Shown here: one piece after another, positions 36,056-64,000 of the stretch
How positions within the stretch are numbered: position 1 is the first letter of the stretch
How the letters are laid out: each line of letters starts with the position of its first letter
From: Candidatus Uabimicrobium helgolandensis
GTDB lineage: Bacteria > Planctomycetota > Uabimicrobiia > Uabimicrobiales > Uabimicrobiaceae
Assembly: GCF_041508025.1 (NCBI RefSeq)
Contig: NZ_CP165719.1
Location: forward strand, 736,023 to 800,022
Reading direction: 5' to 3'
DNA: 64,000 bases
Translations under genes and position numbers: made by a program
Notes under the pieces: generated by a model
Databases searched by the model: none
Seen by the model: only the letters and a program-made list of their open reading frames with translations
What the model was told of the DNA's origin: nothing

Positions 36056-36130
<75 letters not shown>

Positions 36131-36137
36131 TACTATA

Positions 36138-47493: not shown

Positions 47494-48428
47494 TAGCTAA
47501 CCTCTCCTTGGGTTACCCTCATAAAAATATCTTCTAAATTACTTTGTGAAGATGTCACCTCTGTAATAGGAATATCGGCATTAACCAAGTTTTTTATTAC
47601 TAAATACAAGTTTTCTGTTTGTCCAGAATATTCAATTAAAATAGAATCATTTTCGTTGTGAACATTTATAATTTCATCGGTATTTTCTAATACGTTAAGC
47701 GCTGTTTCTATTTTCTCTTTGCTATGAATTTTGATGCGTACTTCTGTGTGATTTTTGCTAGAGAGTTGTGAAATCGTTTGTAGATTTCCACTTACAACTA
47801 AACCTCCTTTTTCAACAATTGCAACTGAATCAACAATATCCGAAAGTTCTGTTAGTATGTGACTTGAGATAAAGACAGTTTTGTTCATATTGCGTAGTTC
47901 TCTAAGAAGTGAGCGAAATTCAATACGAGCTCGCGGATCTAAACCAGCAGCAGGTTCGTCTAATATCAAAACATTTGGGTTGTGTAATAAAGTCTTTGCA
48001 AGACAAAGTCTTTGCTTCATTCCTTTTGATAGAGAAGAAACAAGCTTTGATTCTAGTTTTTGCAAGTCTGTCAATTCCATACAACCTTTTATTGTACCTG
48101 TACGGTTTTTTGGTGGAATACGATAGGAACGAGCAAAAAAATCTAGAAATTCAAAAATAGTTACATTATCGTATGTACCAAAATAGTCTGGCATGTATCC
48201 CATCGCCATACGAACTTTTTCTGGATCAGTATAGACACAGTGTCCATCAATCCAAGCGTTACCGCTATCTGGCTGCAATAAAGTAGCCAACATTTTTATG
48301 GTAGTTGTTTTTCCAGCACCGTTGGGACCGATAAATCCAAATATCTCGCCAGAAGGTACTTCAAATGACAAATTGTCCACGGCTAAAAAATTACCAAAAA
48401 TTTTTGTTAGGTTCTTCAACAAAATCAT
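47493..48428 (-). CDS. ABC transporter ATP-binding protein
   Basis: Walker A GPNGAGKTT, the signature LSKGMKQRL, Walker B LILDEPAAGLD and the H-loop SSH are present. Confidence 0.9.
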   Translation of the reverse strand: MILLKNLTKIFGNFLAVDNLSFEVPSGEIFGFIGPNGAGKTTTIKMLATLLQPDSGNAWIDGHCVYTDPEKVRMAMGYMPDYFGTYDNVTIFEFLDFFARSYRIPPKNRTGTIKGCMELTDLQKLESKLVSSLSKGMKQRLCLAKTLLHNPNVLILDEPAAGLDPRARIEFRSLLRELRNMNKTVFISSHILTELSDIVDSVAIVEKGGLVVSGNLQTISQLSSKNHTEVRIKIHSKEKIETALNVLENTDEIINVHNENDSILIEYSGQTENLYLVIKNLVNADIPITEVTSSQSNLEDIFMRVTQGEVS

Positions 48429-48429
48429 C

Positions 48430-50543: not shown

Positions 50544-53500
50544 ATGATTCGAAAATTTATTGTATGTGTTTTTGCCATTTGCAGCTTAAACATTTACGCG
50601 AACGATGGGGTTATAAATGGTCGCGACGATGTTGAATTCGCAAAGGCCTTAGCTCGTAGTGGATATTATGATTTAGCAGAAGATATCCGCCAGCTTATCC
50701 AACAAAAAGGTTCTAGGCAACAACGTAAAGAAACAGAATTACTGAGATGTTTATTTATTAAAGAAAAAGCTCAGCGTGAACCTGACCCACAAAAAAAGAA
50801 AAACACATATAGCGAAGCTATACAATGTTACGAAAGTCGCCTCGGATCTGTTGGCGGAATTGAAAATGCAAAGTTAAAATTAGAGCTTGCCGATTTAATG
50901 GTAACACAAGCACAAGAAATTATTGAAGAAAGTCGTCAAAAAAACGAACAGATCTCAGGAGTAAATGAAATACTTGCTGGTGCAGGAAAACGTTTTCGCG
51001 AAGTTAAAAGTGAATATGACGATGCAGGAACAAATCTCGAAGCAAAATCAGCAACTGTTCGCGACAAAGCAAACCTTCGTTATCATTCGTGGTATGGTTT
51101 GTGCCGCGTTTACTATTTTCAAGGACTAGCCGGTGGCCAAGGCAAGCTAGATATGTGTAGCAGTGAACTAGAAAACTACATGGGTGATTATGAAGGGCTT
51201 ATTGGTTCTTACTACGCAATGCTACTTAACGGACTCGTTTTGCACGAGAAAGGTTCTTACGGTGACGCTATTATATTCTACGATGGAGTTTTACGCCCTC
51301 TTATGAATGTTGATCACCCCAAAGCTATAGAACTAAGTATTCAATCGTGCTACTATCAAATACAAACTTACAATAAATGGAAAAGATTTTCTAAATCTGC
51401 ACAACTTGCCGGTGACTTTGAAAAACATATGAATGACAAGTTGGCAGTGAAGTTGGAACGCGAAAGCTATGGACAAGCACTCTTATTAGAATTAGGTAGA
51501 GCTTATGTTGGTCAAGGTGAATATGGAAAAGCTCTTAAAATAGCCGAAAAAATAGCTGGTCTGCAAACTTACTGGTCAATAGTTGCTAAAAGATTACTAC
51601 TTGAGTGGGGAAAGTTAAGTCCGACGGCCTTACAAAATGCTAAAAATGCTCATTTAGTGGCGAGTGGACTTGCCAGTAAAGAAGAATATCACGAAGCTAT
51701 TCTTGCTTATCTTAAGGTGATTAAGTATTCTAAGAAAAAGTCTGACATTGCTAAGTATGCTATTGATTCTTGGGAAAAGATGGGGCAACTTTATTGGCAC
51801 CTTGGTTTATATCAAGAATCGGCAATGTGTTATGAAACATGTGCTACAAGTAAAAAATATCGCCTTAAAAAAGTAGTGGAAAAAAAGATAAATGGTAAAA
51901 TTGTTGAACAAAAAATTAGTATTACCGCAAAATCCGCTTACTGGGCGTATCGCGGCTTCAAAGAAGCCTACAAGCAAACCAAAGATGGCTACTTAAAAAA
52001 TAAATCAGATAAAATGCGTAATTATCTGGTTAAAAAATATAGTAATTCTCCTTATGCGAAAAACCTTTCCTATAGTGCGGCAGACGACAAAGAACGCATT
52101 GCTCGCTCCACAAAGAATTATGTTGCTTCTGCTAAGGCATACGAAAAAGCTGCTAATGCTTATCGTAGTGTTTCACCACAAGCAGATGCTTACGAACGTT
52201 CACTTGTGAATATTGGTAAGTGCTACTACAATGCAGCGAAGAAATATGAGCAAAAAAGTAAAACCTCAACAAAGAAGCCTGGCTCATTTCGTATGAATAA
52301 TAAATCCGAAAGCCTATACAAACGCGCAGTTTCGGAACTTAAAAATTATCATACCTACACAAAACAAAATCGTTTATCTGATTTAGAACTTGATAAAAAA
52401 TCTCGCCGTAAAGAAGCAATGGCAGAGTCCTTTTATTTCTTGGGACGTTCTTATTTAAGATTAAAAGATGTTGCTAGAGGAAGTAAGTATTTAGAGACAC
52501 TATGTGAAAGATATCCAGAACAGTCTGACATGTTAGCACAAGCAACTTATCTACTTGTTAAATCAAACCTCAATGCTAATAATTTAAAAAAAGCAGAGAG
52601 CTTTATTAAACGTACAGAAAAAATATATGGCGCAAAAGGTGGTTCTTCCGCAAGCGCTATCTATCGCAGTGCTGCTTACAACCTGGCTGGAAGAAAATAT
52701 TATTCTCTTGCTGCAAATGCTGACGAAAAATATGACGCTCTAAAAAAGAAAGACACTCTAGATCAAAAAGAACTAAAAAAAGCTTTGGATCTCAGAGTTG
52801 ATTATTACACAAAAAGCGCTGATTATTTGAATAAATGGTATTTGTATCGCAGCAGCTTAAAAGTAAATTCATTGGACTGGATTGCTAGTACACAAGTGAT
52901 CACTGCTAAATTGCTTAAAGAAACTGGACAAACACAAAAAGCAAATACAATGTTCAGTAGTGCACTTAAAGTATTTCGCAAGTGCCTTTCTCGTAATAAA
53001 GACCCTAAAAAAGAAAAAGAACTCCAAGAAAAAACAGCAGAATGTGCAATAGAAACAGGAAATTGGGAACAAGCAATTTATGTTTTTTATCCTATTTTTG
53101 CTCAAGACCGTATAGAACGCAAAGAGAAAAATGATTCTCAAACAGAAGATGCACTATACCTTGATTATTTATCGCGTATACTAGCAGGATTAGCGCAACA
53201 AGTGTCCTACAAAGACGCAGATAAACTACACAGTTTTTTGCAGACTTACCTCAGCAAGGAATTAGTAAGCGATATAAGTAAACATATTCCAACAAAAGTA
53301 TCAGAAACAGTATTTTATAACGAATACATTCGCGCACAAATTATTATTGCCAAAGTAAATGACTCGGCTCTAAGTGATGGTGAGCGTAAAGAATTGTCTG
53401 ATGAATTTAATAAGCAAAAAGATGAACTAAATCAAATCACAGAGGAAGAACGTCTTGATCGAGGTATTAAAACACTACAAGTGACATATCGCGACAAAGC

Positions 53501-53834
53501 TCTTAATCTCATTGAGGAAAAATTACCACAAAATTCAAAAGAAGCGCATGGAGATGCTGGACAACGTATCAAAAATATGTGTCTTTACTTATCATATGAC
53601 TACACATCTAAGCTTCTCGATCGCCTATCTCCATATCAAAATCCACAAGTTCGCTTTGGAAATTACGATAACCCACAGTGGTGGGAAACAAAATATCGTC
53701 AGTTTCTCATTTTGCAGTTACGTGGAGAAGGAGCAAGAGTCAAAGGGCTTATTAAAGCACTACGCCTCAATCAACGCAAAATGGGTGGACCTGTTTATCA
53801 AAGGAAATTTCAAGAACTGTCAGAACGTTCTTAG
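50544..53834 (+). CDS. Large (about 1100 aa) TPR-repeat protein with signal peptide (GltD/AgmU-like architecture)
   Basis: The start at MIRKFIVCVFAICSLNIYAN has AAAGG upstream. TPR-like repeats run throughout (many A/Y/L-periodic helices). Confidence 0.7.
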   Translation: MIRKFIVCVFAICSLNIYANDGVINGRDDVEFAKALARSGYYDLAEDIRQLIQQKGSRQQRKETELLRCLFIKEKAQREPDPQKKKNTYSEAIQCYESRLGSVGGIENAKLKLELADLMVTQAQEIIEESRQKNEQISGVNEILAGAGKRFREVKSEYDDAGTNLEAKSATVRDKANLRYHSWYGLCRVYYFQGLAGGQGKLDMCSSELENYMGDYEGLIGSYYAMLLNGLVLHEKGSYGDAIIFYDGVLRPLMNVDHPKAIELSIQSCYYQIQTYNKWKRFSKSAQLAGDFEKHMNDKLAVKLERESYGQALLLELGRAYVGQGEYGKALKIAEKIAGLQTYWSIVAKRLLLEWGKLSPTALQNAKNAHLVASGLASKEEYHEAILAYLKVIKYSKKKSDIAKYAIDSWEKMGQLYWHLGLYQESAMCYETCATSKKYRLKKVVEKKINGKIVEQKISITAKSAYWAYRGFKEAYKQTKDGYLKNKSDKMRNYLVKKYSNSPYAKNLSYSAADDKERIARSTKNYVASAKAYEKAANAYRSVSPQADAYERSLVNIGKCYYNAAKKYEQKSKTSTKKPGSFRMNNKSESLYKRAVSELKNYHTYTKQNRLSDLELDKKSRRKEAMAESFYFLGRSYLRLKDVARGSKYLETLCERYPEQSDMLAQATYLLVKSNLNANNLKKAESFIKRTEKIYGAKGGSSASAIYRSAAYNLAGRKYYSLAANADEKYDALKKKDTLDQKELKKALDLRVDYYTKSADYLNKWYLYRSSLKVNSLDWIASTQVITAKLLKETGQTQKANTMFSSALKVFRKCLSRNKDPKKEKELQEKTAECAIETGNWEQAIYVFYPIFAQDRIERKEKNDSQTEDALYLDYLSRILAGLAQQVSYKDADKLHSFLQTYLSKELVSDISKHIPTKVSETVFYNEYIRAQIIIAKVNDSALSDGERKELSDEFNKQKDELNQITEEERLDRGIKTLQVTYRDKALNLIEEKLPQNSKEAHGDAGQRIKNMCLYLSYDYTSKLLDRLSPYQNPQVRFGNYDNPQWWETKYRQFLILQLRGEGARVKGLIKALRLNQRKMGGPVYQRKFQELSERS

Positions 53835-53857
53835 ACAAAGAAAAGGAGGCTACATAA

Positions 53858-54976
53858 GTGGTAACTCTCAGGATAAATATGACAAGATTAGTTCAATGTC
53901 TGATCTTTATGTTAATTGCGATCCATATTGTATCGGCAGATACAATATATTTCAAAAATGGTACGTCGCGTACAGACGTAAAGATCATCAAGGATAGCTA
54001 CGCAAAAATTGCTTACGAATTGCGAAAGCGTACTGTGTCTGTGCAAACAGAAAGAGTAGATTGGATAGAATATTCCGATAGTCCTCAAGAACTTATCGCA
54101 GGTAGAGGAGCTTTAAACAAGGGTGATTACGAAGGAGCTGTTTCATTGATAAATAGCGCTGCAGAAGCTGCTAGTTTACCGCCGGCTGCAGGACCTTGGT
54201 TTTTTGTTTATAGTAACTATCTTTTAGGTAAAGCGTATCAAGGTTGGGCAGATAGTGATCCTCAACAATCTGATTTGTATAAAACTGCTATTAAGCATTA
54301 CCAAGACGCTGCATCTAAACCCGAAAGTCGTTACCTACATGAAAGTTATTTTGGTATTGCACAGTGTTACATTAATTTAAAAGAGTATAGCAAAGCTAGT
54401 CAATCTCTAAGTAAACTAGAAGCTGATGCTGGAAGAAATAGTTCTGACTACTGGAAAATACAAGCAACATTATGGCAAGGCCACAAATCTCTTGCCCAAA
54501 AAAGTTTTACTTCTGCCGTTAGCAAATATCAACGTGCGCAATCCTTAGCAAGTAAAAAAGAGTTGACCAAATTGGAACGCGAAGCAGCAATTGCCATTGG
54601 TAATTGTTACATCCAAGATAAAAAGTTTTCTCGCGCCAAAAGCCATTTTGAAAGCTTAAAAGACGCAGCAGAAAAAAATGATTACGAGCTTCTTGCTGCC
54701 GTTGAAAACGGCCTTGCTATGAGCCTTCTAGAAGAAGGAAAAATAACTTCGGCAAGGCGAAAAGCACTTAATGTTATTCTTGACTATTTTGAGGCAGAAG
54801 AAGAGCGCCCGCAAGCTCTGTTTATTGCTGGTTTGTGTAATGAAAAAGCTACAAAAGAGAAGAATCACTTAAAAAGAGCACAAGCATGCTACCGATTTCT
54901 AACCCAAGGTTATCCAGGTAATCCTTGGACAACAAAAGCACTGCGCCGGTTACAAAAAATTACGCAACAAGAATAA
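53858..54976 (+). CDS. TPR-repeat secreted protein
   Basis: The GTG start has a strong AAGGAGG 8 nt upstream. It has a signal peptide and TPR motifs (LGKAYQGWAD, AIGNCYIQDKKFSRAKSHFE). Confidence 0.7.
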   Translation: MVTLRINMTRLVQCLIFMLIAIHIVSADTIYFKNGTSRTDVKIIKDSYAKIAYELRKRTVSVQTERVDWIEYSDSPQELIAGRGALNKGDYEGAVSLINSAAEAASLPPAAGPWFFVYSNYLLGKAYQGWADSDPQQSDLYKTAIKHYQDAASKPESRYLHESYFGIAQCYINLKEYSKASQSLSKLEADAGRNSSDYWKIQATLWQGHKSLAQKSFTSAVSKYQRAQSLASKKELTKLEREAAIAIGNCYIQDKKFSRAKSHFESLKDAAEKNDYELLAAVENGLAMSLLEEGKITSARRKALNVILDYFEAEEERPQALFIAGLCNEKATKEKNHLKRAQACYRFLTQGYPGNPWTTKALRRLQKITQQE

Positions 54977-55196
54977 AATCATTGCAGTGTTATTGTCGTA
55001 CTGATACAATAGAAAAACATGTACTTTTTTGGTCGCTGCCCAAAAAATAAGTGACTTAATAAAAAAATTATGTAGGGATATCTCTCTTGTACAATAGATA
55101 CTTTTTTAAGTCACTTAATACTTTTGCTAGGTAGTTTTATCAGGTAATTCTGTAAAGAAATTTTTACAGAAAGTTCATTTATATAGAAAGGCAGTC

Positions 55197-55928
55197 ATGA
55201 GTAGCAAAAAACTGCTGTGGACAACATTATTATTGATAATGTCTCTATTTTGTGCAACCACTTTTTTAGGTGCACAAGACGACGCGGGTCTCGGAGAAGA
55301 ATTCCAAGACGATTATACTCTATGGGGTCTTATAAAAGTTTCAGGTCCTATTGGATGGTTAATTATTCTTCTATCTGTTGCGACCTTAGCACTTGCAATT
55401 GAGCACTTAGTATCTCTACGCCGCGATAAGCTCATTCCTCCTGATCTTTTGCAAGAAATTGAAGATCTATTTGAAGAAGAGGCTTATGAAGAAGTCATGG
55501 AGACATGTGCTGCTGAACCAGGCTATTTCACAAATGTAATCGGTGCAGCATTACCACGAGTTAACTCTGGTTATGATTCTATGATGGAAGCTGTACAGAG
55601 CATAAGTGAAGAAGAGTCTGTAAAATTACAGCAGAAAATCTCGTGGATGCAATTGATTTCAGCTGTAGCTCCGATGCTTGGACTACTTGGTACTGTAACT
55701 GGTATGATTGGGGCTTTTAGCCAAATCGCAACCATGTCTGGTGCACCGAAACCAAAAGACCTTGCGAAAGGTATTTACCAAGCGTTAGTTACTACATGTC
55801 TTGGACTCATCGTAGCGATTCCTGCTATTGCCTGTTATTTTTATTTCCGTAATAAAGTAGTTCGTATTAGTATGGAAATTAATGGTATATCTGAAGAATT
55901 GCTAGAACGTTTTAGACAAGATGCTTAA
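55197..55928 (+). CDS. MotA/TolQ/ExbB-family proton channel
   Basis: 243 aa with 3 TM helices and the conserved C-terminal channel helix region (GLLGTVTGMIGAFSQIA…TTCLGLIVAIPA). Confidence 0.85.
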   Translation: MSSKKLLWTTLLLIMSLFCATTFLGAQDDAGLGEEFQDDYTLWGLIKVSGPIGWLIILLSVATLALAIEHLVSLRRDKLIPPDLLQEIEDLFEEEAYEEVMETCAAEPGYFTNVIGAALPRVNSGYDSMMEAVQSISEEESVKLQQKISWMQLISAVAPMLGLLGTVTGMIGAFSQIATMSGAPKPKDLAKGIYQALVTTCLGLIVAIPAIACYFYFRNKVVRISMEINGISEELLERFRQDA

Positions 55929-55947
55929 AATGAAAAGGTAAAAAAAT

Positions 55948-56400
55948 ATGAAACGTCGCAAGTCTAAAGATATGGAAGATATCGAAATGGACATGACTCC
56001 CATGATCGACGTCGTCTTTAACTTAATCATATTTTTCATGTTAGTAACACAAATGGTAACTATTGAACGTGCAGAGTTAGAGTTACCAAGAGCAAGTAAC
56101 GCAGAAGAAGAGGAAGTCGAAGACAAAAATCAATTTATTGTTAATATCCATCAAAAACCAGATGAAGAAGGTCGTTGGATTGAAACAAGTCTTGGTAAAC
56201 ACTCGTGGGCAGAATTGTCTCAACTTCTTTACGAAGAAGCGCAAGCCAAATTTAATGAAAACGAAAATATCTCAGATCGCCAGGTATTAATACGTGCAGA
56301 CATTTTTACACCTTATCGTATGGTTCAACGTGTCATGATTGAGTGCTCAAAACAAAAAATTTACAAAGTTTCCTTTGCAACCAAAATACAATCTGAGTGA
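55948..56400 (+). CDS. ExbD/TolR-family biopolymer transport protein (paralog 1)
   Basis: It has the N-terminal DMTPMIDVVFNLIIFFM signature and TM helix. Confidence 0.85.
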   Translation: MKRRKSKDMEDIEMDMTPMIDVVFNLIIFFMLVTQMVTIERAELELPRASNAEEEEVEDKNQFIVNIHQKPDEEGRWIETSLGKHSWAELSQLLYEEAQAKFNENENISDRQVLIRADIFTPYRMVQRVMIECSKQKIYKVSFATKIQSE

Positions 56401-56416
56401 TTAAGGAGTTTTTCAC

Positions 56417-56917
56417 ATGGCTGTTTCTCGATCTTTAGAAAAAATAGCAAACGAAAAAGCAGATATGGACATGACACCAATGATTGATGTCACGTTCTTA
56501 CTGTTAATTTTCTTTATGTGTACTTTGCATTTTAAAGTTCTAGAAGGAATACTGCAAGCGCATTTACCCAAAGATCAAGGAATGCAGAACACATCAGCAG
56601 AAAAAGATCCTGAAGAACCTATCACCGTAAAAATATTAACATCTTCTAGAGATGTTACGGTTGTATGGGTTGGGAGCGAGCAATTTGAAGGTCAAAGAAA
56701 ATTTACGCGTTTGTTTAACAAAATACGTAGCATTGTACAAGCAAGTCCCAATTCTAATCCACCAGTCGTTATTGATCCCGACATTGATGTTCCTTTTCAA
56801 GATATAATTTCAACGCTGAATGCCTGTCGTAGAGTAGATGAGACCCGAGAAGGGAAAAAACCTCTACAAGTTAAATTTGCGGCTAAAGCGCTCGATGACT
56901 TGGAAGATGAAAATTAA
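56417..56917 (+). CDS. ExbD/TolR-family biopolymer transport protein (paralog 2)
   Basis: The signature is DMDMTPMIDVTFLLLIFFM. The RBS AAGGAG lies 9 nt upstream. Confidence 0.85.
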   Translation: MAVSRSLEKIANEKADMDMTPMIDVTFLLLIFFMCTLHFKVLEGILQAHLPKDQGMQNTSAEKDPEEPITVKILTSSRDVTVVWVGSEQFEGQRKFTRLFNKIRSIVQASPNSNPPVVIDPDIDVPFQDIISTLNACRRVDETREGKKPLQVKFAAKALDDLEDEN

Positions 56918-56933
56918 GAACTTTATATACAAA

Positions 56934-56967
56934 GTAGGGTGTCTCTGTTAAGGCGTGTGACACGCCC
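56934..56967. mobile_element. Degenerate mini-copy or footprint of the MITE (joined terminal repeats)
   Basis: tagggtgtctctgttaaggcgtgtgacacgccctgg. The left part resembles the TIR start tagggcgtgtc. The right part, gacacgccctgg, is identical to the right end of copy B. It also contains the palindrome ggcgtgtgacacgcc. Confidence 0.4.
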
Positions 56968-57354
56968 TGGTATTTGATATATGTTTATTATATATCAGTG
57001 CAACCAGGGACTCCTAATTTGGTAAAGTATTGTGTTTAGTCATTTTGATCTAACAATACTTTAAAATGTGTAATTGACAAAAGGAATAATGATTAGAGAA
57101 GTTTTAAATGAGTGGAAAAAATAGGACATGCTCTGGAAAGTCTTAAAATTATCAAATTTGGAAAAAGCAACTGTGTTGATTATTCTTTTCCGCTCATCTA
57201 CTCAATTTTCCTAAAAATTTTCAGGCCACTTTAAATCGAATTTCCAGGAACAGTTTGCAAATGTATTTTACATTGACCTACTGTTTTTGCTTTGTGGTCG
57301 CAAACCTAAATCCCACCAAAATAACAAGTATTCCAATAACAATGAGGAAAATTT

Positions 57355-58281
57355 ATGTCGCAAAATAAAACATCTATTGCATCGCGAAAAGAGTGGGTTT
57401 CCTTAGGCATTCTTTTCTTTATGGCCTGTGCGATAGGTACTTATATTGTATCTAATATCGAAAATGATATTAAAAAAATAAAAGACAGTTCTTCAAACGA
57501 CTACGAAGACTTTGAGTTAGAATATGACAAAGAGAAACAACAACAAATAAAGCCAACAAAATTTGTGGAAAAAAAGTTTACAGAAGAAAATATTCTAGAC
57601 TCAAAATATATAACGACTGAAGCCTATTATTATTTTGTTCACAAGCTTCTTTTTACGACTAATAAACAAATTGAAGAACAAACAGATCCTAATCTTGGAT
57701 GGCGCAATTTAATAAAAATTAAAGAACGCGATCAATTGCGTGGAAAATTTATGCGCATTAAGGGAGAGCTAGTAAAACTAGACAAAGAAGTCTTAAAAGG
57801 AAAATACGCAGACAAGCGAAATATTAAAGGCCTAGTGGTGTGGCGCGGCGTTATTTTCTCTTCCGATGGTCGCCTGTATTTATTTACTATTACTGATCCG
57901 CCAGAAGGTATCAAGAAAGGACAAGCTGTTGAACTGTACGCGATGTTTTTCAAAATATGGATTTATGAAACAACGTCCGGTGGTGAAGCAAAAAACCCAT
58001 ACTTTTTGGGAAAAAATGTTAAATTAATACCACAAGTTCAAACACATCAACAAAAGAAAATAACTGTAGTTTTTCTCCTCATATTTGCAATTACTTGTAT
58101 TTTACTAGGGTATGGAATTGTTGTAGAACGACAACAAGCGAAAAAATTTAGCAATGCTTATGCTGAACGAAAATTAAAGCGTCTGAAAGAAAAGCGCGAA
58201 AAGCGTGAGAAAAAAGTTGGTGAGAAAGACGAAAACGAGAAAGACGAAAACGAGAAAGATGAAGATAAAGATATCTCGTAG
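57355..58281 (+). CDS. Bitopic membrane protein with C-terminal KDENE repeats (hypothetical)
   Basis: It has an N-terminal TM and a second TM near residue 240. The C-terminus is EKDENEKDENEKDEDKD. The RBS GAGGA lies upstream. Confidence 0.5.
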   Translation: MSQNKTSIASRKEWVSLGILFFMACAIGTYIVSNIENDIKKIKDSSSNDYEDFELEYDKEKQQQIKPTKFVEKKFTEENILDSKYITTEAYYYFVHKLLFTTNKQIEEQTDPNLGWRNLIKIKERDQLRGKFMRIKGELVKLDKEVLKGKYADKRNIKGLVVWRGVIFSSDGRLYLFTITDPPEGIKKGQAVELYAMFFKIWIYETTSGGEAKNPYFLGKNVKLIPQVQTHQQKKITVVFLLIFAITCILLGYGIVVERQQAKKFSNAYAERKLKRLKEKREKREKKVGEKDENEKDENEKDEDKDIS

Positions 58282-58334
58282 AATTCTCTTTAACAGCCGT
58301 GTATAGGGCTACTGTTAAGAAATATAGGACTCAT

Positions 58335-58352
58335 TCCCTGCTCTCGCAGGGA
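58335..58352. terminator. Hairpin tccctgc-tctc-gcaggga between convergent genes
   Basis: A 7-bp stem and 4-nt loop, positioned after gene 57355-58281 (+) and after the SRPBCC gene (-). Confidence 0.5.
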
Positions 58353-58360
58353 GTAATATG

Positions 58361-58798
58361 TTATTGTAAGTTCTCAGCGCGTTTTTTCAAAGCGTTCATT
58401 GAATCGACTAAGCTGACGTTCTTTAATGTGTTCATTATTTTTTTAGGAACCCATAGCCCTAACTCTATTTCGAAATTACAAGTTGCTGATGTTGTTTGGT
58501 CGTTTACTTTAGCAAAGACGTAACTACCTTCAATGTTTTTGAGATCACCACCAACATAGCCCCAAGTTAGAGTGTGTTTTTCTTCGTCGTACTCGTAGCG
58601 CAGGGTATAGTTTAATTTTTTTACAAGTATTTTTACATCGTACTCTACAATAATAGGACGATTTTTTGTATCTCTTTCTAAAACAGATATGTTTTTGATT
58701 GTGTCTTGCCACTGTGGGTATGTTTCAAAATCGCAGATAGTTTTGTAGCATTTTTCGATATCTGTATTTATCATTATTGTTTTTTGTTGTTTTTCCAT
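58361..58798 (-). CDS. SRPBCC (polyketide cyclase/dehydrase-like, RatA-like) family protein
   Basis: 145 aa. INTDIEKCYKTICDFETYPQW is a typical SRPBCC N-terminal beta-strand/helix. The RBS GAGGA lies upstream. Confidence 0.6.
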   Translation of the reverse strand: MEKQQKTIMINTDIEKCYKTICDFETYPQWQDTIKNISVLERDTKNRPIIVEYDVKILVKKLNYTLRYEYDEEKHTLTWGYVGGDLKNIEGSYVFAKVNDQTTSATCNFEIELGLWVPKKIMNTLKNVSLVDSMNALKKRAENLQ

Positions 58799-58818
58799 CT
58801 TTTCCTCAGGAGTTACCT

Positions 58819-59835
58819 ATGAAATGGCTATATTGTGTTTTTCTTATTTGCGTGCCAATATTTAGTCAGCAGCAAAGATCGGATACTATTGTAGCTATTG
58901 TAAACAAAGATATAATAACATATGGAGATGTACTCAAAAAAGTAAAAAGTATCATTCAGAGTATTGAAGCTTCCGGCTTGCCAAGAAAGCAAAAAGAATT
59001 ACGTAAAGCAGCAAGTATGCAAGCAAAATTACGTGATATGGTCGATACACTACTTATGCAGCAAGAAGCTAAAAAATATAAGCTAGAGCTGCCTAATCGC
59101 GAAAATATTAAGAAGCAAGTTGAAAAACAGCTAAAGAAACAAAAAGAAACACGTGGGCTAGATGAATTTGCTCTAGAAGACGTTTTTTATTCGCGAGAAT
59201 TATTACGCAACTTGCTACAAGCTCGTTCTGCATACTCTCAAGGGGGTGAACGGCGTGCTGATATTGATACTTTTGTACAACCCGCTGAAATTTGCCAGTA
59301 CTATAAAGATAACCTTGGTAAATATACCAAACCTCCTAAGATAAAAACGCGTATTATAACTTTGTTTTACAGTAAAAATGATGGCCGTGAACAAACACGC
59401 GCCAAAGCAGAATCAATTGTTCGCGAACTTCGTAACGAAGCTGATTTTGCAGAAATAGCAAAACTATACTCTAATGACCCTTATGCTGAAAGCGGTGGAG
59501 ATTGGCCGCGAAAATTAAAAGATAATAAAGAAGTATGGGATTTTATCGGTAAAGGGGAATTGCCAAAAGAAGTAGATGATATTGCTTTTAGTATGAGCAA
59601 AGGAGAAATAAGCGAACCTATCATGCTCGATGGTGAATCCTACTGTCAAATTGTGAAAATAGAAGATATGGTAGAAGGAGGAGCCGTTCCTTTTACAGAA
59701 GTACAGCCTGAAATACGCCGTCGATTGCAAAATGAAAAAATAGTAAGCGCTTTGAAAGGTATGCTTACTCAACTTCGTCGTCGATCTTTTTTATGGCCAG
59801 AGAACATTTTTCGTAATCCAAACGAATTAGAGTAA
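58819..59835 (+). CDS. SurA-like periplasmic chaperone / parvulin-type peptidyl-prolyl isomerase
   Basis: The signal peptide is MKWLYCVFLICVPIFSQ. A SurA-N-like helical region is followed by a PpiC/parvulin domain (FAEIAKLYSNDPYAESGGDW…GEISEPI). GGAG lies 6 nt upstream of ATG 58819. Confidence 0.7.
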   Translation: MKWLYCVFLICVPIFSQQQRSDTIVAIVNKDIITYGDVLKKVKSIIQSIEASGLPRKQKELRKAASMQAKLRDMVDTLLMQQEAKKYKLELPNRENIKKQVEKQLKKQKETRGLDEFALEDVFYSRELLRNLLQARSAYSQGGERRADIDTFVQPAEICQYYKDNLGKYTKPPKIKTRIITLFYSKNDGREQTRAKAESIVRELRNEADFAEIAKLYSNDPYAESGGDWPRKLKDNKEVWDFIGKGELPKEVDDIAFSMSKGEISEPIMLDGESYCQIVKIEDMVEGGAVPFTEVQPEIRRRLQNEKIVSALKGMLTQLRRRSFLWPENIFRNPNELE

Positions 59836-59846
59836 GAGGTATAGTG

Positions 59847-61640
59847 ATGAAATGGTTATGTGTGGTAATGAGTTTGACCTTTACTTTTGCACAAATACAA
59901 AATGAAGAAGTATTACAATTACTAGGTGAACAAAACAGTGAACAATTTCACAAGCCTTATCCACTTGCCATACTATATCAACTTGTTGATATGCCTTATC
60001 ACCAGGTTTATGAAAGAGTACTTCGCGCTCAATTTGAAGATAGATTATCAAATAACTATGAAAATTTTTACAATGCAAAATATTACCACACTGCATTAAC
60101 AAAAAGAATTATTGAAGCTTCTTCAGTGAAAGATATACCGAAAAAAATGTTAAGTACTCTCAAACAAGAGCATTTTTTAGCTATTGAAATTCATGGATAC
60201 GATCGTTATTTTGTTATGAGAGCTTTTTGCCCAAAAACCAGAACATTTAGTCCTATAGTGCGTCGTTCTTTTAACTCAAATGAAACCCTTGCCAAAGATA
60301 TTTGTAGTATTATTCCACAGATATTTGGTATTGAAGGTATTGTTGTAAAAAAAGAAGAAGAACACTATTTGTTTTTGCGCGGGAATAACACGACTATGCG
60401 TAGTATACTAAAGAGTGGAGGACATACTTTTTATTTGTATCGACAAAACGCACGTATTGTCAATACCTATGCTCAAATAGGTGAGTTGCTTTCAGTTGGT
60501 ACTTTTGTGTATAGTAAGATTGATGTACTAGGCGATTACAAATTGCGTGGTTTTGAAACAGCTCAGAAAATTTATTTTACAGGTGGTTTTCAAAAAATAA
60601 AATTAATAAATCACGAAGAGCAGTCGCAAGAAGCCTTTTCTATCTTTACCAGTTACGAGGGGTTTTCTGATAATTCCAAGAACTATCGCGGAACTACAGA
60701 CATTTCAGGCAGTTTTAAAATCGAAGATACTGAAAAAGCGCCTATATTTTTGATGATCATGAAAAATATGAATAATGTTAATTTTCCTATTGTACGTAGG
60801 CATATTATTGTCGAAAACAATAGTGCTACTCTCAAACTCGTAGCGCAAACGTTAGAAGAAGTAGAAGCAATTTCAAAACGAAAGCTTTCACAAAGACAAC
60901 TCTTACAAATAAAAAACGAAGTGGTTCAGAGAATACTACAAGCGAAGAATTATATGAAGTTGAACGACTTTGAGAAAGCAATTATTTCTTTGGAATATGC
61001 AAAAAAATTAACCCAAAAAATGAATAAAGAACCCTCATTGCAGAACGCTCTTACAAAATTAGAAAACGTCTATCAGCAAGCTTTGAAACAAAAGAAAATG
61101 AATCGCAACAAGAAAGAAGCGATTGCGCTTTTGAAAAAAACAGACAAAAAAGTAAGTAATTTTTTCTATAAAGAAGCTTTAGAACTTGCAAAAAAAGCAC
61201 AACGCCTCTGGCCGTTTGCCAACGATGAAAACAAAGGGTACCAAGAAATTCTTAAACGATTAAAAAAAATTGAGATTTTGCTTCTTCAAGAAAACACTAG
61301 TTTCGGTGAAGCACGACTACTACTATCAAAAACTCTATTTTCTTTTAATTCAGACAACATAACCATTAGAAATATCGAAACAATTCACGGTGCTGTTAAG
61401 ATATTAAATACTCCACAAAAACACCAAGAAATTTATAATGACCGCTATATTTTAACAGCAGCAAGATCTTTTTTAGACAAGCTCGCAAGTGATCTTATCA
61501 CAATTGCAAACTTTCATTTGGAAAAATACAAAAATAATGAAAACACCAATGAAAGGCGTGAAGCTTATAAGAATTATGAAAAATATTACAACAGTAGTAA
61601 GAAGATTGACGTGATTTTAAGTGAACTCCAAAAAATATAA
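59847..61640 (+). CDS. Secreted hypothetical protein with C-terminal helical/TPR-like region
   Basis: The signal peptide is MKWLCVVMSLTFTFAQ. The RBS AAGAGG lies upstream. Confidence 0.5.
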   Translation: MKWLCVVMSLTFTFAQIQNEEVLQLLGEQNSEQFHKPYPLAILYQLVDMPYHQVYERVLRAQFEDRLSNNYENFYNAKYYHTALTKRIIEASSVKDIPKKMLSTLKQEHFLAIEIHGYDRYFVMRAFCPKTRTFSPIVRRSFNSNETLAKDICSIIPQIFGIEGIVVKKEEEHYLFLRGNNTTMRSILKSGGHTFYLYRQNARIVNTYAQIGELLSVGTFVYSKIDVLGDYKLRGFETAQKIYFTGGFQKIKLINHEEQSQEAFSIFTSYEGFSDNSKNYRGTTDISGSFKIEDTEKAPIFLMIMKNMNNVNFPIVRRHIIVENNSATLKLVAQTLEEVEAISKRKLSQRQLLQIKNEVVQRILQAKNYMKLNDFEKAIISLEYAKKLTQKMNKEPSLQNALTKLENVYQQALKQKKMNRNKKEAIALLKKTDKKVSNFFYKEALELAKKAQRLWPFANDENKGYQEILKRLKKIEILLLQENTSFGEARLLLSKTLFSFNSDNITIRNIETIHGAVKILNTPQKHQEIYNDRYILTAARSFLDKLASDLITIANFHLEKYKNNENTNERREAYKNYEKYYNSSKKIDVILSELQKI

Positions 61641-61767
61641 AATCGCTGTTGAAATATTATAGAATATAGAATACAATCATGAAAATAATTTTGAGCATGC
61701 TCCTAAAACAGCTGCTCCATAGTATCATAAACAAACCTCGTGTAAAATTTGAGAAAGGCTCAGTCAA

Positions 61768-62829
61768 ATGCAAGACCAAGATCCTAAAGAGTTATTAGTA
61801 CAATACGGGCACATCCTTGCTTTTGTTGTTTGCATCGCATTCAACGGTTTTTGGTATATGGGAGCAGGGGATGCAAGAGCGGACGCTTTGATCACCAAAG
61901 TAGAAAGATCGCAAAAAAAGATCGCAAAGATGAAAAGAGCAAGTAAAACACCACCTGACGAGAATATGGACTATAGCAAGACAGTAGAGGCTAACTGGAA
62001 CAACACCACGGCTTTGTCACCTTCTCCAGGATTCAAATCTATTTACCCTTCGGCAAACATCACATTTGAACGCGAAGTTCCTCCTGAAGATCAGTGGATT
62101 AGTAAGCCTACAGGACTTCAGGTTAGTGTTGGTAAAGAAAAACTTTCTTTGCAGTGGCGTGCTCCGTTTCCATTAAGAGACAAAACTGGCAAACAACGAC
62201 AAATGACAAAAGTAGCCGGCTACGAATTAGTAAAACTTTGGAGAAATCCTAAAGGCAAATCCAAGAGAAAGCGCTATACTTTTGGTAGTGGTACTACTAG
62301 CTTTGTCGATGAAAAAGTAGAAACCAAAACTCTATATTCTTATAAAGTACGTGCCTATAGCTTTAACACCGCAGCAAAAGGTGGTGGCGAAGGCGAAGTA
62401 AAGGGAAAGAAAGCTGTATTAAGTGATTTTAGCGGCACCAAAAAAGGTAAAATTAAATCTTTGTATGAGATTGAGCTTTTAGGTGTAGCGGGAGAAAGTG
62501 CTTTTATTAAATTACGTCGTTACTACAAAGGGCAAAATCGCGAAACCACCTGCACCATAAAAAAAGGTGCGGACATTGAAGCCAAAAACGTTAAGGTTTC
62601 TGGTTTAGATAAGCGTATGGATTTTGTTCCTGGTTGGAAGCTTCTTCACTTAACTACTCGTGCAGAACGCACAAGAAAAATCACAAAAAAGGTTTTTGTT
62701 CGTATCAACCCTGATACAGGTAAGGGCGAATACAAAGATGTAACTACTGAGCAAAAATATGAAACCGCTGCGATTATTTTTAAAGATGAGAAAAATAAAC
62801 AAGTAAAGAGATTTAAAACAAAAAAGTAA
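61768..62829 (+). CDS. Membrane-anchored fibronectin type III domain protein
   Basis: It has an N-terminal TM (ILAFVVCIAFNGFWYMGAG). The FN3 hallmarks are PTGLQVSV…LSLQWRAP…GYELVKLW…YSYKVRAYS. Confidence 0.55.
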   Translation: MQDQDPKELLVQYGHILAFVVCIAFNGFWYMGAGDARADALITKVERSQKKIAKMKRASKTPPDENMDYSKTVEANWNNTTALSPSPGFKSIYPSANITFEREVPPEDQWISKPTGLQVSVGKEKLSLQWRAPFPLRDKTGKQRQMTKVAGYELVKLWRNPKGKSKRKRYTFGSGTTSFVDEKVETKTLYSYKVRAYSFNTAAKGGGEGEVKGKKAVLSDFSGTKKGKIKSLYEIELLGVAGESAFIKLRRYYKGQNRETTCTIKKGADIEAKNVKVSGLDKRMDFVPGWKLLHLTTRAERTRKITKKVFVRINPDTGKGEYKDVTTEQKYETAAIIFKDEKNKQVKRFKTKK

Positions 62830-62897
62830 CCCACTTGCACCAAAAGAGTAAGTATAGATTGGAAAAGATCCCCTCCACGATTAGAAGGTGAATTTCG

Positions 62898-64000
62898 ATG
62901 GTACAAACAAATTTCTTCCAAAAAGAAATCAGCTTAAAATTTATTTATTATGGTCGAGACAGTGTAGGTAAAAAAACTACGCTTCATAGCCTACATAAGC
63001 ATCTTGAGTCAAAACAAAAAACTAAAATACAAGATGAAAATTTTGATGATGTGATTGTCCATCATTTTATCCACATTCCGAGAAAAGCACTTGCTGGAAT
63101 GAAAATTAAATGTGGAATATACTGCATACCAGAGGAAGGACTTCACTCTAAAAAAGTACTGTCTTTACTCGAAAGCGTTGATGGGATCATTTTTGCTGCT
63201 GACCTAAATTCTACTACAGAAGAAGCTGCAGAAAGTTATAAAAAACTGGAAGCGGCTTTCAAAAAAATAGACGAAAAACTGATGTTTCGTTCTATGGTTA
63301 TGCAGTATACCAAAAAAGATCTTGTTGATAACGTTGATGAAAAAGTAGAAGCTTTCAACACTTCTTTTAACAAGCTAAAGAAAAAACATTTTGCTAGCGG
63401 AGAAGGTTCAGCTCAAGAAATTCTTGATACATGGGAATGTGTATATTCCCAAGTAATGATCGAAGTTAGAGCAAAACTTGACTCAACGACAAAGAGCATG
63501 CCTAAAACAAAATTGAAGTTTAATTTTAACCGCAAAAAAGAGGTAGAAGAAACGGAAGAAGACGACAAAGGTTTAAAAATACCCAAAAAATTTGCTAAAA
63601 AAGATGAAGAACCCGACGAATATAACGACACTAGAATTGATTTGCATGTTTCAGAAGATGAAAGTAAGAAAGCTAGCGAAATAGAAGTAATCGCAAATGA
63701 AGATAATAAAACCAGCGAAACGGAAGTAATCGCGGATGAACGCAAGAAAGCTAGCGAAACCGAAACAATCGCAGAACATAATCAACATCTTATAAAAAAG
63801 CAAATGCCTATAGACAGTTTCTTCGAAGAAAGTTCTGAAGAAGGGTTAACCAGCGCAAAAACGGAATCTTTTTCTGTTGATGAAAAAGAAATGGATTCTA
63901 TTAACAGACTAAAAGTGACAAACCAACTACTTTCAGAATTAGATACCTCTTTACGTGAACAACGCGCGCCTGAAACTCTATTTTTTGAATCTACCTCCGA
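62898..64000 (+). CDS. MglA-like Ras-superfamily small GTPase with long acidic repetitive C-terminal extension (3' end outside window)
   Basis: The N-terminal 150 aa align with MglA: KFIYYGRDSVGKKTTL matches the MglA P-loop KIVYYGPGLCGKTTNL, VDGIIFAADLNS matches VDGVVFVADSQ, and QYTKKDL matches QYNKRDL. The G3/catalytic region reads IPEEG instead of VPGQ. The tail carries KKASE(I/T)E(V/T)IA repeats. Confidence 0.7.
   Translation, partial: MVQTNFFQKEISLKFIYYGRDSVGKKTTLHSLHKHLESKQKTKIQDENFDDVIVHHFIHIPRKALAGMKIKCGIYCIPEEGLHSKKVLSLLESVDGIIFAADLNSTTEEAAESYKKLEAAFKKIDEKLMFRSMVMQYTKKDLVDNVDEKVEAFNTSFNKLKKKHFASGEGSAQEILDTWECVYSQVMIEVRAKLDSTTKSMPKTKLKFNFNRKKEVEETEEDDKGLKIPKKFAKKDEEPDEYNDTRIDLHVSEDESKKASEIEVIANEDNKTSETEVIADERKKASETETIAEHNQHLIKKQMPIDSFFEESSEEGLTSAKTESFSVDEKEMDSINRLKVTNQLLSELDTSLREQRAPETLFFESTS

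Follow-up and report, generated by a model that had tools for sequence, protein, structure and literature searches.

In the Agl/Glt system, the core complex combines two exported TPR proteins, one long and one short, with a TolQ-like channel and a pair of nonidentical TolR-like subunits; these are the products of gltD (1191 aa), gltE (471 aa), aglR (245 aa), aglQ (162 aa), and aglS (194 aa) (PMC3169522). A 2011 survey confined the core clade to Proteobacteria and Fibrobacteres; the complex has been transferred horizontally between phyla and, as reported by Luciano et al., is insufficient for gliding by itself (PMC3169522).

Candidatus Uabimicrobium sp. HlEnr_7 (Ca. U. helgolandensis), the source of the DNA analyzed here, is a planctomycete that engulfs prey in a phagocytosis-like manner; it feeds on this prey and is missing several biosynthetic pathways. 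Published descriptions portray a host without a flagellum that glides on surfaces with shape change and, for Uabimicrobium, an unusual mode of division. Within the window, by which we mean the whole 64-kb stretch, one region encodes a putative proton-driven motor of the TolQ/ExbB type together with two TPR scaffold proteins. Because relatives carry this module and MglA in one same-strand gene array, we see in it a good candidate, though an unproven one, for a new machine that serves gliding or generates envelope force. The genes of the region are as follows.

50544..53834, + strand: TPR_L, 1096-aa exported TPR protein, the marker gene of the module (TPR Pfam matches; signal peptide)
53858..54976, + strand: TPR_S, 372-aa exported TPR protein (Pfam TPR_19 at 1e-8; signal peptide)
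55197..55928, + strand: ExbB/TolQ-type proton-channel subunit, 243 aa (MotA_ExbB PF01618 at 1.3e-27)
55948..56400, + strand: ExbD1, TolR/ExbD-type subunit type 1, 150 aa (PF02472 at 6e-24)
56417..56917, + strand: ExbD2, TolR/ExbD-type subunit type 2, 166 aa (PF02472 at 2.4e-18)
57355..58281, + strand: 2TM-300, 308 aa, two predicted TM helices (no family match)
58361..58798, − strand: SRPBCC (polyketide-cyclase-like) gene (PF03364 and PF10604 matches)
58777..59835, + strand: SurA-like periplasmic PPIase (Rotamase and SurA_N Pfam matches)
59844..61640, + strand: 598-aa exported protein (signal peptide; no family match)
61768..62829, + strand: 353-aa membrane-anchored protein (N-terminal His-containing TM helix)
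62898..64000, + strand: degenerate MglA paralogue, continuing past the window end (PDB match to MglA, 1e-11)

Motor subunits and neighboring envelope proteins

An earlier note on this DNA had described two TPR proteins, a MotA/TolQ/ExbB-family channel, and two tandem ExbD/TolR paralogues, and all of these were recovered by Pfam on the plus strand. Against NCBIfam, the channel scored best with the TolQ model at 81 bits (cutoff, 221) and reached 49 bits with the ExbB model (cutoff, 206), while the TolR model was best for both ExbD proteins, at 56 and 44 bits (cutoff, 127). Among PDB sequences, the channel matched TolQ (3e-10) and ExbB (1e-8). Its N terminus resembles a signal peptide, and its Thr166 and Thr200 are invariant and line up with the pore Thr residues of TolQ and ExbB from E. 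coli. The transmembrane Asp21 of ExbD1 is invariant in the alignment with TolR and ExbD from E. coli, and the conserved transmembrane Asp of ExbD2, counted by hand on the alignment, is Asp24. The channel is 96% identical to that of U. amorphum and 67% identical to that of L001, one of the planctomycetal loci compared (numbered L001 onward); between the window and L001, the cytoplasmic domain of ExbB is 81% identical and TPR_L is 35% identical. ExbD1 and ExbD2 share merely 28% identity, and in L001, L006, and L009 the orthologue of ExbD1 is the first ExbD and that of ExbD2 is the second (and third). Since separate orthologues of the two subunits are found in distant clusters, the ExbD pair is old.

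TPR_L matches an NCBI protein from Ca. Uabimicrobium sp. HlEnr_7 at 100% identity; its signal peptide was read directly from the N-terminal sequence, and its AF2 model is all-helical, with a mean pLDDT of 79.7. TPR_S begins with a small domain, continues with TPRs, and gave weak, sub-threshold matches to the YbgF/CpoB and BamD models. In 2TM-300, a TM helix lies near each end, flanking a beta-rich middle of ~200 aa, and the C-tail is charged; family searches against Pfam and NCBIfam returned no match, and the AF2 model (pLDDT 40.6) was unusable. This protein is 36% identical over 221 aa to the product of L001:17880-18791, which belongs to the same cluster, and a distant homologue of like topology is encoded beside the ExbB/ExbD genes of L009 (E value, 4.5e-6).

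The minus-strand SRPBCC gene, which is kept in U. amorphum, forms a divider between the motor operon and the genes from SurA-like to MglA-like. The SurA-like, secreted, and membrane genes that the earlier note had drawn into the neighborhood are present in the window but absent from the clusters of relatives. Specifically, the SurA-like PPIase gene is found in U. amorphum and is missing from the L001, L006, and L007 clusters; the 598-aa protein has a counterpart, 64% identical, only in U. amorphum; and the 353-aa protein is 60% identical overall to that of U. amorphum, where its TM helix core, YGHILAFVVCIAFNGFW, is identical. Neither of the latter two proteins matched Pfam, NCBIfam, or PDB, and the FN3 label given to the 353-aa protein, which had come from a sequence pattern alone, was left without HMM or PDB support. 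These three genes were found only in Uabimicrobium, and the SurA-like gene lies outside the conserved module.

The planctomycetal module and its linkage to MglA in three lineages

TPR_L, TPR_S, ExbB, ExbD1, and ExbD2 constitute a module that, among the relatives sampled, was found only in Planctomycetota and is often joined by a protein of ~300 aa with two TM helices. Synteny comparison, as proposed with the original description, revealed an identical order of TPR_L, TPR_S, ExbB, ExbD, and ExbD in U. amorphum, L001, and L006. TPR_L also adjoins TPR_S in L007 and L011, and TPR_S follows TPR_L in the majority of relatives, with orthologues immediately 3′ of TPR_L in L001, L003, L006, L007, and L011. 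In the distant version carried by L009, ExbB is accompanied by three ExbD genes, a gene resembling 2TM-300, and genes for a 567-aa protein and a 962-aa TPR protein. Full-length homologues of TPR_L at 28 to 37% identity were found in planctomycetal MAG loci L001, L005, L006, L007, L008, L011, L012, and L013; the proteins of L001, L006, and L012 share ~37 to 44% identity with one another. Across planctomycetal TPR_L proteins, identity drops to ~20%, and any link to GltD would therefore be very remote. A profile search with TPR_L yielded 468 matches (E ≤ 1e-3), all nine of the named relatives sampled belonged to Planctomycetota, and the module family spans MAGs of this phylum with very different GC content. 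This wider family of ~950-aa TPR_L relatives, with its 468 matches, suggests a general function in the envelope of Planctomycetota more than a machine devoted to motility. Module-bearing MAG lineages without known gliding also count against a motility reading.

The association with MglA proved stronger than the basis on which it had been proposed. In three divergent lineages (L001, L006, and L012), a canonical MglA, its GPGLSGKT, TVPGQ, and NKRD motifs all intact, is encoded immediately 5′ of TPR_L on the same strand, preceded in each by an orphan SBP_bac_5 protein. The latter, an OppA/NikA-like protein of the periplasmic substrate-binding type, is the most constant upstream neighbor of TPR_L (L001, L006, L007, L012, and L013). 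No MglA gene was found adjoining the module in L007, L011, L013, or the distant L009, and no MglB (Roadblock) gene was adjacent in any locus examined. The orthologous SBP5-MglA pair is present on the Uabimicrobium-like contigs L016 and L017, and the HlEnr_7 genome encodes this same canonical MglA, P0187; in Uabimicrobium the pair sits elsewhere in the genome, away from the module.

The MglA-family gene within the window, 9 kb away, was correctly assigned to its family, as MglA provided the sole PDB sequences matched below an E value of 0.1 (1e-11), but it is not the canonical copy. In place of the MglA motifs GPGLCGKT, DRT, TVPGQ, and NKRD, it carries GRDSVGKK, DDV, CIPEE, and TKKD, respectively, and these degenerate motifs are conserved in U. 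amorphum. Identity to the canonical cluster-linked MglAs is ~24 to 26%. An N-terminal G-domain-like fold is followed by an acidic, repeat-rich extension that runs past the window end, and in U. amorphum the orthologue reaches 953 aa and contains pentapeptide repeats. The gene is a conserved paralogue whose nucleotide-binding motifs are degenerate.

Candidate functions of the motor cluster

In NCBIfam, the channel and the two ExbD proteins score best with TolQ and TolR, TolQ tops the PDB matches, and TPR_S shows its weak likeness to YbgF/CpoB and BamD. Together with the breadth of the module family in Planctomycetota MAGs of very varied GC content, and with the unusual division reported for Uabimicrobium, these matches fit a Tol-Pal-like housekeeping role, in which the motor and CpoB/BamD-like TPR proteins would serve outer-membrane stability or constriction and keep growth or division of the envelope coordinated, with no direct role in motility. 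We consider this unlikely, as every Tol score falls far under its curated cutoff, neither the cluster nor the window holds a TolA, TolB, or Pal/OmpA-like gene, and Tol-Pal is characterized neither by a heteromeric ExbD pair nor by co-orientation with MglA. Less probable still is a TonB-like energizer that powers outer-membrane import, with cargo such as peptides or polymers captured by the SBP_bac_5-like protein and with 2TM-300 or another protein replacing TonB. A prey-feeding host without several biosynthetic pathways and the constancy of the orphan SBP_bac_5 protein 5′ of TPR_L would suit such a function, as would the occurrence in Bacteroidota Ton clusters of ExbB-ExbD-ExbD arrays accompanied by a TPR gene and a gene resembling those for binding proteins. 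However, the SBP5 gene is not adjacent in the window, the TolQ model outscores the ExbB model, and an uptake role leaves the co-orientation with MglA unexplained. The reported lack of a TonB gene also extends to the whole 64 kb, as none of the ORFs of 150 aa or more matched TonB_C, Plug, or a TonB-dependent receptor.

True membership in the Agl/Glt core clade, by descent or horizontal transfer, would equate TPR_L with GltD, TPR_S with GltE, and ExbB, ExbD1, and ExbD2 with AglR, AglQ, and AglS. Gene order and sizes resembling those of gltD, gltE, aglR, aglQ, and aglS, export of the TPR proteins, the link to MglA, and the record of transfer between phyla speak for this assignment, which we nonetheless judge quite improbable: the defining partners GltG (FHA plus TonB_C) and GltC are missing, the named TPR_L profile matches sampled are all planctomycetal, the 2011 survey placed the clade in two other phyla only, and TPR_L identity within Planctomycetota is already down to ~20%. 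The Agl/Glt likeness drawn in the earlier note applies to the architecture, which parallels the core complex, and not to its partners. No GltG-like (FHA/TonB_C), GltC, GltF, GltA/B/H/K, AglZ, or GltI protein was seen in the window, no relationship to GltC was detected, and no outer-membrane component or adhesin was identified. The 1+2 arrangement of ExbB and ExbD is real but not diagnostic of AglRQS.

We favor, with a probability of about 0.5, an envelope force module that is a functional analogue, and possibly a very distant relative, of the Agl/Glt core, with gliding as its most likely output. The region would then be the Uabimicrobium copy of a planctomycetal envelope force-generating module. 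Judging from the protein families and their conserved residues, the motor unit would have five ExbB/TolQ-like subunits around two nonidentical ExbD/TolR-like subunits paired as a heterodimer, and proton flow via a conserved Asp/Thr pathway would power it. Conserved synteny suggests that the work may be handed to the periplasmic 1096-aa TPR solenoid, the 372-aa TPR protein, and the ~300-aa two-TM protein, which could stand in for TonB, TolA, or a GltG-type transducer. From the order SBP_bac_5-like, MglA, TPR_L, TPR_S, ExbB, ExbD, ExbD in the nearest lineages, we infer that an MglA-type polarity GTPase may place or switch the machine, the SBP5-MglA pair having moved elsewhere in the Uabimicrobium genome. 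As its output, the machine would most likely move or position complexes of surface adhesion or of the envelope, which would amount to surface-dependent gliding. Gliding as the output of the motor cluster is plausible, and the gliding context of the original proposal agrees with a host that glides without a flagellum.

Comparison with known systems

Like Tol-Pal (TolQ-TolR-TolA-TolB-Pal-CpoB), in which CpoB fills this place, the window encodes a periplasmic TPR partner; unlike Tol-Pal, it has two different TolR-like subunits and TPR partners of 372 and 1096 aa, which are not CpoB-sized. Ton systems with a duplicated ExbD include exbB-exbD1-exbD2 of Xanthomonas and exbB-exbD-exbD-tonB-TPR arrays of Bacteroidota. 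The 1+2 arrangement and a neighborhood with a TPR and a binding-protein-like gene are common to these systems and the planctomycetal module, whereas the module is linked to MglA and the window lacks TonB_C and nearby TonB-dependent receptors. A tolQ/tolR cluster from the same superphylum resembles the window in that a TPR gene is followed by a tolQ-like and two heterologous tolR-like genes. That cluster has one TPR gene, in contrast to two, one of them giant, in the window, and its motor genes are followed by a vWA-domain transducer with an SHLS/His TM helix, where the window has 2TM-300, which matched no family. In excerpts of its description, a gliding role is a speculative suggestion and linkage to MglA or SBP5 goes unmentioned.

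Compared with MglA, the Ras-like polarity GTPase of Myxococcus, Thermus, and Bdellovibrio, the window copy has Lys for the P-loop Thr, carries other residues in place of the Arg finger, the Thr of switch I, the Gly-Gln of switch II, and the Asn of NKxD, and adds a long repeat-containing C-terminal extension, while the cluster-linked genes of relatives retain all signature motifs, including TVPGQ.

With Myxococcus Agl/Glt (PMC3169522; PMC11761067), the window shares one TolQ-like channel, two different TolR-like subunits, and an exported TPR protein of ~1100 to 1200 aa whose ends are helical but not TPR, next to which a shorter exported TPR protein is encoded; TPR_L and TPR_S are likened to GltD and GltE by size, order, and features, as compared with the published description. 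Both Agl/Glt and the planctomycetal module are tied to MglA, functionally or genetically, and both hosts glide flagellum-free. Where Agl/Glt has a GltG/GltJ-type transducer (FHA/ZnR-GYF, TM helix, TonB_C), the window has a ~300-aa two-TM protein, and in planctomycetal relatives, but not in Myxococcus, MglA lies within the gene array of the module, which also includes an SBP_bac_5-like protein that Agl/Glt does not have. Overall, we regard the cluster as an analogue that resembles Agl/Glt and as a variant among motor systems of the TolQR/ExbBD type.

Gene content of the cluster and its surroundings

The genes that the earlier note had placed in this cluster were all found at the positions it had assigned to them, as follows.

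Features of the window cluster
50544-53834, + strand: TPR_L, an exported TPR protein of 1096 aa
53858-54976, + strand: TPR_S, an exported TPR protein of 372 aa, directly 3' of TPR_L
55197-55928, + strand: MotA_ExbB protein (PF01618), here ExbB
55948-56400 and 56417-56917, + strand: ExbD1 and ExbD2, two PF02472 matches
57355-58281, + strand: 2TM-300, a 308-aa two-TM protein without a family match
Between 2TM-300 and the SurA-like gene, opposite strand: SRPBCC gene
After the SRPBCC gene: SurA-like PPIase, 598-aa exported protein, 353-aa anchored protein and an MglA-like gene (62898 onward)

The absence of a TonB gene, also claimed previously, was borne out, as window ORFs of at least 150 aa contained neither a TonB_C domain nor a Plug domain or TonB-dependent receptor. 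The same set of ORFs held no FHA, vWA, TolB or OmpA/Pal domain, and no OmpA-like, autotransporter or further giant TPR protein was found within the 64-kb window. A promoter and terminator scan gave signals not above shuffled expectation, no Rfam elements were present in the cluster, and the 437-bp gap after ExbD2 contained no plausible small ORF. GC content across the window was 33-41%, consistent with the 35% that has been reported for the HlEnr_7 genome.

For the 308-aa protein, a word-indexed homologue search returned Uabimicrobium-level relatives only, its AF2 model was unusable (pLDDT of 40.6), and its first TM helix lacks His. The 598-aa protein (best TPR match no better than E 0.42) and the 353-aa protein gave no Pfam, NCBIfam or PDB match, and no vWA match was obtained for the 308-, 598- or 353-aa protein even at E≤1. 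Therefore, neither an FN3 assignment, the label previously attached to the 353-aa protein, nor a vWA assignment was confirmed. The N terminus of the 353-aa protein (window 61768-61870) carries a single TM helix whose core, YGHILAFVVCIAFNGFW, is the same in U. amorphum, the whole protein being 60% identical. This His-containing helix recalls the motor-binding helix of TonB/TolA, although the full SHLS pattern is absent from it. The SurA-like, 598-aa and 353-aa genes had been listed in the earlier note as neighbours; they were seen in Uabimicrobium alone and lie outside the conserved core.

Upstream of the cluster, a divergent ABC-2 operon (window 45850-50295, - strand) encodes a 547-aa permease, a 311-aa ATPase and a 621-aa protein of unknown nature, and occupies the position held in relatives by SBP5, an orphan SBP_bac_5-like gene, and MglA. 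Assignment of this operon as GldA/F/G was rejected: GldA was only the second-best NCBIfam match of the ATPase (233 bits; cutoff, 402.6), and neither GldF nor GldG was matched. Elsewhere in the window, a 2178-aa protein (3274-9813, - strand) has a Ser/Thr kinase domain joined to several WD40 beta-propellers, consistent with an expansion of this kinase type that has been reported for Uabimicrobium. A neutral/alkaline ceramidase homologue (325-2379, + strand; Ceramidase_alk, E 1e-65) belongs to a family regarded as uncommon in bacteria, a hint that sphingolipids, possibly from prey or host, are turned over. One tRNA gene was identified (36056-36130; Rfam tRNA, 63.5 bits). Because it extends into the mechanically assigned start of the ORF at 36072-37616, translation of that ORF must begin further downstream.

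The motor and its TPR proteins across loci

Loci from genomes and metagenomes were compared with the window by tblastn and blastp; a metagenome scan yielded one further locus only.

Gene order at the compared loci
Window (HlEnr_7) and L003/L004 (U. amorphum): divergent ABC operon, TPR_L, TPR_S, ExbB, ExbD1, ExbD2, 2TM-300, SRPBCC (opposite strand), SurA-like, 598-aa, 353-aa, degenerate MglA-like
L001 (metagenome contig): unknown, SBP_bac_5, MglA, TPR_L, TPR_S, ExbB, ExbD1, ExbD2, GT87-like membrane protein, 2TM-300
L006 ('Ca. Brocadiia' MAG): unknown, SBP_bac_5, MglA, TPR_L, TPR_S, ExbB, ExbD1, ExbD2
L012 (assembled sequencing-run [Logan] contig): SBP_bac_5, MglA, TPR_L
L007/L008 (Planctomycetota MAG; metagenome contig): SBP_bac_5, TPR_L, TPR_S
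L013 (metagenome contig): SBP_bac_5, TPR_L
L011 (assembled sequencing-run [Logan] contig): TPR_L, TPR_S, contig end
L009 (distant, 67% GC): ExbB, three ExbD (types 1, 2, 2), 307-aa distant 2TM-300 homologue, 567-aa protein, 962-aa TPR_L relative

From these gene orders, the constant core consists of TPR_L and TPR_S, ExbB, ExbD1 and ExbD2, often with 2TM-300. Two loci carried additional features. At L009:4701-12889, from a planctomycetal MAG, the type-2 ExbD copies are nearly identical, and the 567-aa TM protein between the 2TM-300-like and TPR genes bears a squalene-cyclase-like alpha/alpha toroid domain. At L012:9268-11246, two paralogous soluble proteins of 305 and 351 aa follow MglA-TPR_L; a faint Copine match to the 351-aa protein, not seen for its paralogue, suggests that both may be vWA-like.

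The channel protein scored best against the NCBIfam TolQ model (81 bits, cutoff 221), with the ExbB model lower (49 bits, cutoff 206), and its PDB relatives were TolQ and ExbB. The ExbD proteins reached 56 and 44 bits against the TolR model (cutoff 127) and at most 25 bits against ExbD models. A TM aspartate is essential in TolR and ExbD, and alignment with the E. coli proteins showed it to be kept in both paralogues (ExbD1 Asp21 and ExbD2 Asp24, counted by hand). In the alignment of ExbB with E. coli TolQ/ExbB, the pore threonines Thr166 and Thr200, of TM2 and TM3, were invariant. The proton-pathway residues of 5:2 proton-driven MotA/TolQ/ExbB-ExbD motors, TM Asp and pore Thr, are thus present. 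ExbD1 and ExbD2 share 28% identity, and each has separate orthologues in distant planctomycetal clusters. Given these conserved residues and distinct paralogues, the natural reading is a heteromeric ExbD pair, which would sit within an ExbB pentamer; we infer this stoichiometry by analogy with AglR5-AglQ-AglS, where a heteromeric pair has been modelled inside the pentamer.

Conservation of ExbB was not confined to its membrane helices. In its cytoplasmic domain (residues 73-150, window 55413-55646), the window ExbB shares 81% identity with that of L001, as much as in the TM helices, in contrast to only 35% for TPR_L between the same loci; against L009, which lacks MglA, the domain is only 33% identical. 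This pattern is a soft observation, compatible with a conserved cytoplasmic partner.

TPR_L consists of a signal peptide, helical ends and central TPRs. It matches an NCBI protein of Ca. Uabimicrobium sp. HlEnr_7 (Ca. U. helgolandensis) with 100% identity, and identity to the orthologue in Ca. U. amorphum is 81%. When 1.84 billion representative proteins were searched with a TPR_L profile, 468 matches were obtained at E≤1e-3, comprising a few full-length relatives of 1100-1230 aa and then a large family of ~900-1050 aa. Twenty of the 468 were sampled; the nine with names were without exception from Planctomycetota or 'Brocadiia' MAGs, so that the sampled matches argue for a planctomycetal family. 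The TPR_L model (pLDDT of 79.7) matched only generic long TPR solenoids (Ski3, Ctr9) in a Foldseek search of the PDB; bacterial periplasmic TPR scaffolds (a Campylobacter motor scaffold chain and T9SS SprE) gave low TM-scores. Just past the signal peptide (window 50604-50630), the motif G-[IV]-x-N-G-[KR]-D-D is near-invariant in all close relatives, conserved enough to serve as a scan pattern, and may be a docking site. TPR_S keeps its position directly downstream of TPR_L in relatives; the YbgF model reached 31 bits (cutoff 90).

Association with MglA

The last gene of the window had been described as an MglA-family GTPase. Its G-domain similarity to MglA held, as its sole PDB matches below E 0.1 were MglA (E 1.2e-11, residues 4-190), but its nucleotide-binding and catalytic motifs are not intact. 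Where intact MglA has GxxxxGK[ST], an Arg finger and switch I Thr, TxxGQ and NKxD, this protein has GRDSVGKK, DDV, CIPEE and TKKD, which are kept in U. amorphum; the P-loop Thr is changed to Lys, and the Arg finger, switch I Thr, switch II Gly-Gln and NKxD Asn are also replaced. No Pfam or NCBIfam match was obtained for it, and identity to canonical MglAs is ~24-26%. Most likely, this protein serves as a scaffold that either does not hydrolyse nucleotide or binds none, and its relation to the motor is positional only. The U. amorphum orthologue has 953 aa, with pentapeptide repeats, and the C-terminal extension of the window protein (63640-63790) contains the acidic near-repeats SEIEVIANED, SETEVIADER and SETETIAEHN.

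Canonical MglAs were found next to the TPR_L genes of relatives. Those of L001, L006 and L012 have intact GPGLSGKTT, TVPGQ and NKRD motifs and lie on the same strand, immediately 5' of TPR_L. As the TPR_L proteins of these loci are ~37-44% identical among themselves, the MglA-TPR_L adjacency is old. Canonical MglA paralogues, P0187 and P0213, are encoded at other sites in the HlEnr_7 genome; P0187 carries the canonical motifs and shares 68% identity with the MglA of L001. In two Uabimicrobium-like loci (L016:5480-7710 and L017:8409-10639), the SBP_bac_5 orthologue is followed directly by an MglA of the P0187 cluster and then by a PTS_EIIA_2 gene; an FHA-GGDEF protein is encoded two genes upstream. 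The simplest history would be an ancestral array of SBP5, MglA, TPR_L, TPR_S, ExbB, ExbD and ExbD that was split in Uabimicrobium. No Roadblock/MglB gene was adjacent in any locus examined. Exact-protein look-up of the window ExbB and TPR_L, of P0187 and of the U. amorphum MglA P0291 returned no record. A 2014 survey of prokaryotic small GTPases did not list Planctomycetes among the MglA-bearing phyla.

Interpretation and relation to known systems

All functional claims made here are drawn from genomes. With high confidence, the module is predicted to encode a functional PMF-driven motor of the TolQR/ExbBD family that contains two different ExbD subunits; its genes are coupled to those of two exported TPR proteins, and the module was seen only in Planctomycetota. 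With moderate confidence, it would be functionally tied to MglA. What such a motor might drive is suggested by its host. Published descriptions present Uabimicrobium planctomycetes as lacking flagella, gliding on surfaces with shape change and engulfing prey, and theirs is the only cultured bacterial lineage known for whole-cell engulfment. The accessible text of the Uabimicrobium papers searched makes no mention of MglA, ExbB or TolQ, that of the 2024 description of Ca. U. helgolandensis makes none of Agl, and the literature searched names no motility or engulfment machinery in the portions available. The host therefore makes the module an attractive lead. The chance that the module powers surface gliding or envelope dynamics in Uabimicrobium is put at roughly one in three. 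To the fuller reading we assign a probability of about 0.3; here, the MglA-steered module would be the gliding motor of Uabimicrobium, possibly also used for deformation during engulfment, and a planctomycetal TolQR-TPR machine with a new type of transducer. Such a trans-envelope machine would have arisen independently of the myxobacterial Agl-Glt focal-adhesion system, or be no more than a remote relative of it, and the two-TM protein together with the TPR solenoids would act as transducer in place of a TonB-like protein.

The module may instead serve a Tol-like role in envelope maintenance or a Ton-like role in uptake. The former would fit a channel and ExbD proteins that score best against TolQ and TolR, and the latter draws on the constant SBP_bac_5 neighbour, which hints at ligand binding. 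Membership in either system fails because of the scores and the missing partners: the TolQ, TolR, YbgF and ExbB scores fall below the cutoffs, no TolA, TolB or Pal was found in the window, and no TonB_C, Plug or TonB_dep_Rec occurs in the 64 kb. Were the module a planctomycetal equivalent of Tol-Pal, it would still supply a missing piece of the phylum's envelope biology. An anti-phage (Zorya-like) reading was rejected, there being no PADLOC matches.

As a conserved motor of the TolQR type that is linked to MglA and has giant periplasmic TPR scaffolds, the module is a concrete, testable candidate. If the gliding reading were true, the family of 5:2 proton-driven motors would be extended, the pairing of an MglA polarity switch with a TolQR-like motor would reach beyond Myxococcota and Bdellovibrionota, and a further transducer type, neither TonB/TolA-like nor vWA-like, would be added. 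The literature searched contained no account of the linkage to MglA and SBP5, of the giant TPR_L family or of the two-TM accessory.

The Agl/Glt core comprises the exported TPR proteins GltD (1191 aa) and GltE (471 aa), GltG (FHA, TM helix and TonB_C), GltC and AglR/AglQ/AglS (Luciano et al. 2011, PMC3169522). Several parts of it differ from the module. No FHA or TonB_C match that would mark a GltG-type transducer was obtained in any cluster or window ORF, and the position of GltG is held here by the two-TM protein without a family match. For GltC, an exported TPR protein of ~670 aa, the sole window candidate is the 598-aa protein, with no TPR match better than E 0.42, and none of the group A parts (GltA, GltB, GltH, GltK, GltF, GltI and GltJ) lies within the window. 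Other features are common to both: one channel gene with two distinct TolR/ExbD-type genes, a connection to MglA and, in architecture, two exported TPR proteins as candidate counterparts of GltD and GltE. The 1+2 arrangement, regarded in the earlier note as characteristic of gliding motors, is present but not exclusive to Agl/Glt. The designation 'Agl/Glt-like' thus stands as an analogy of architecture and regulation rather than as a statement of family membership, and the original interpretation is partly supported. PVC clusters of the order TPR-tolQ-tolR-tolR-vWA (PMC12204202) offer a second comparison. They encode downstream a TM-anchored vWA transducer with an SHLS/His motif, which is absent from the module; the TPR gene, the tolQ-like gene and the heterologous tolR-like pair are present in both, and a role in gliding is one that its authors, too, suggest with a 'perhaps'.
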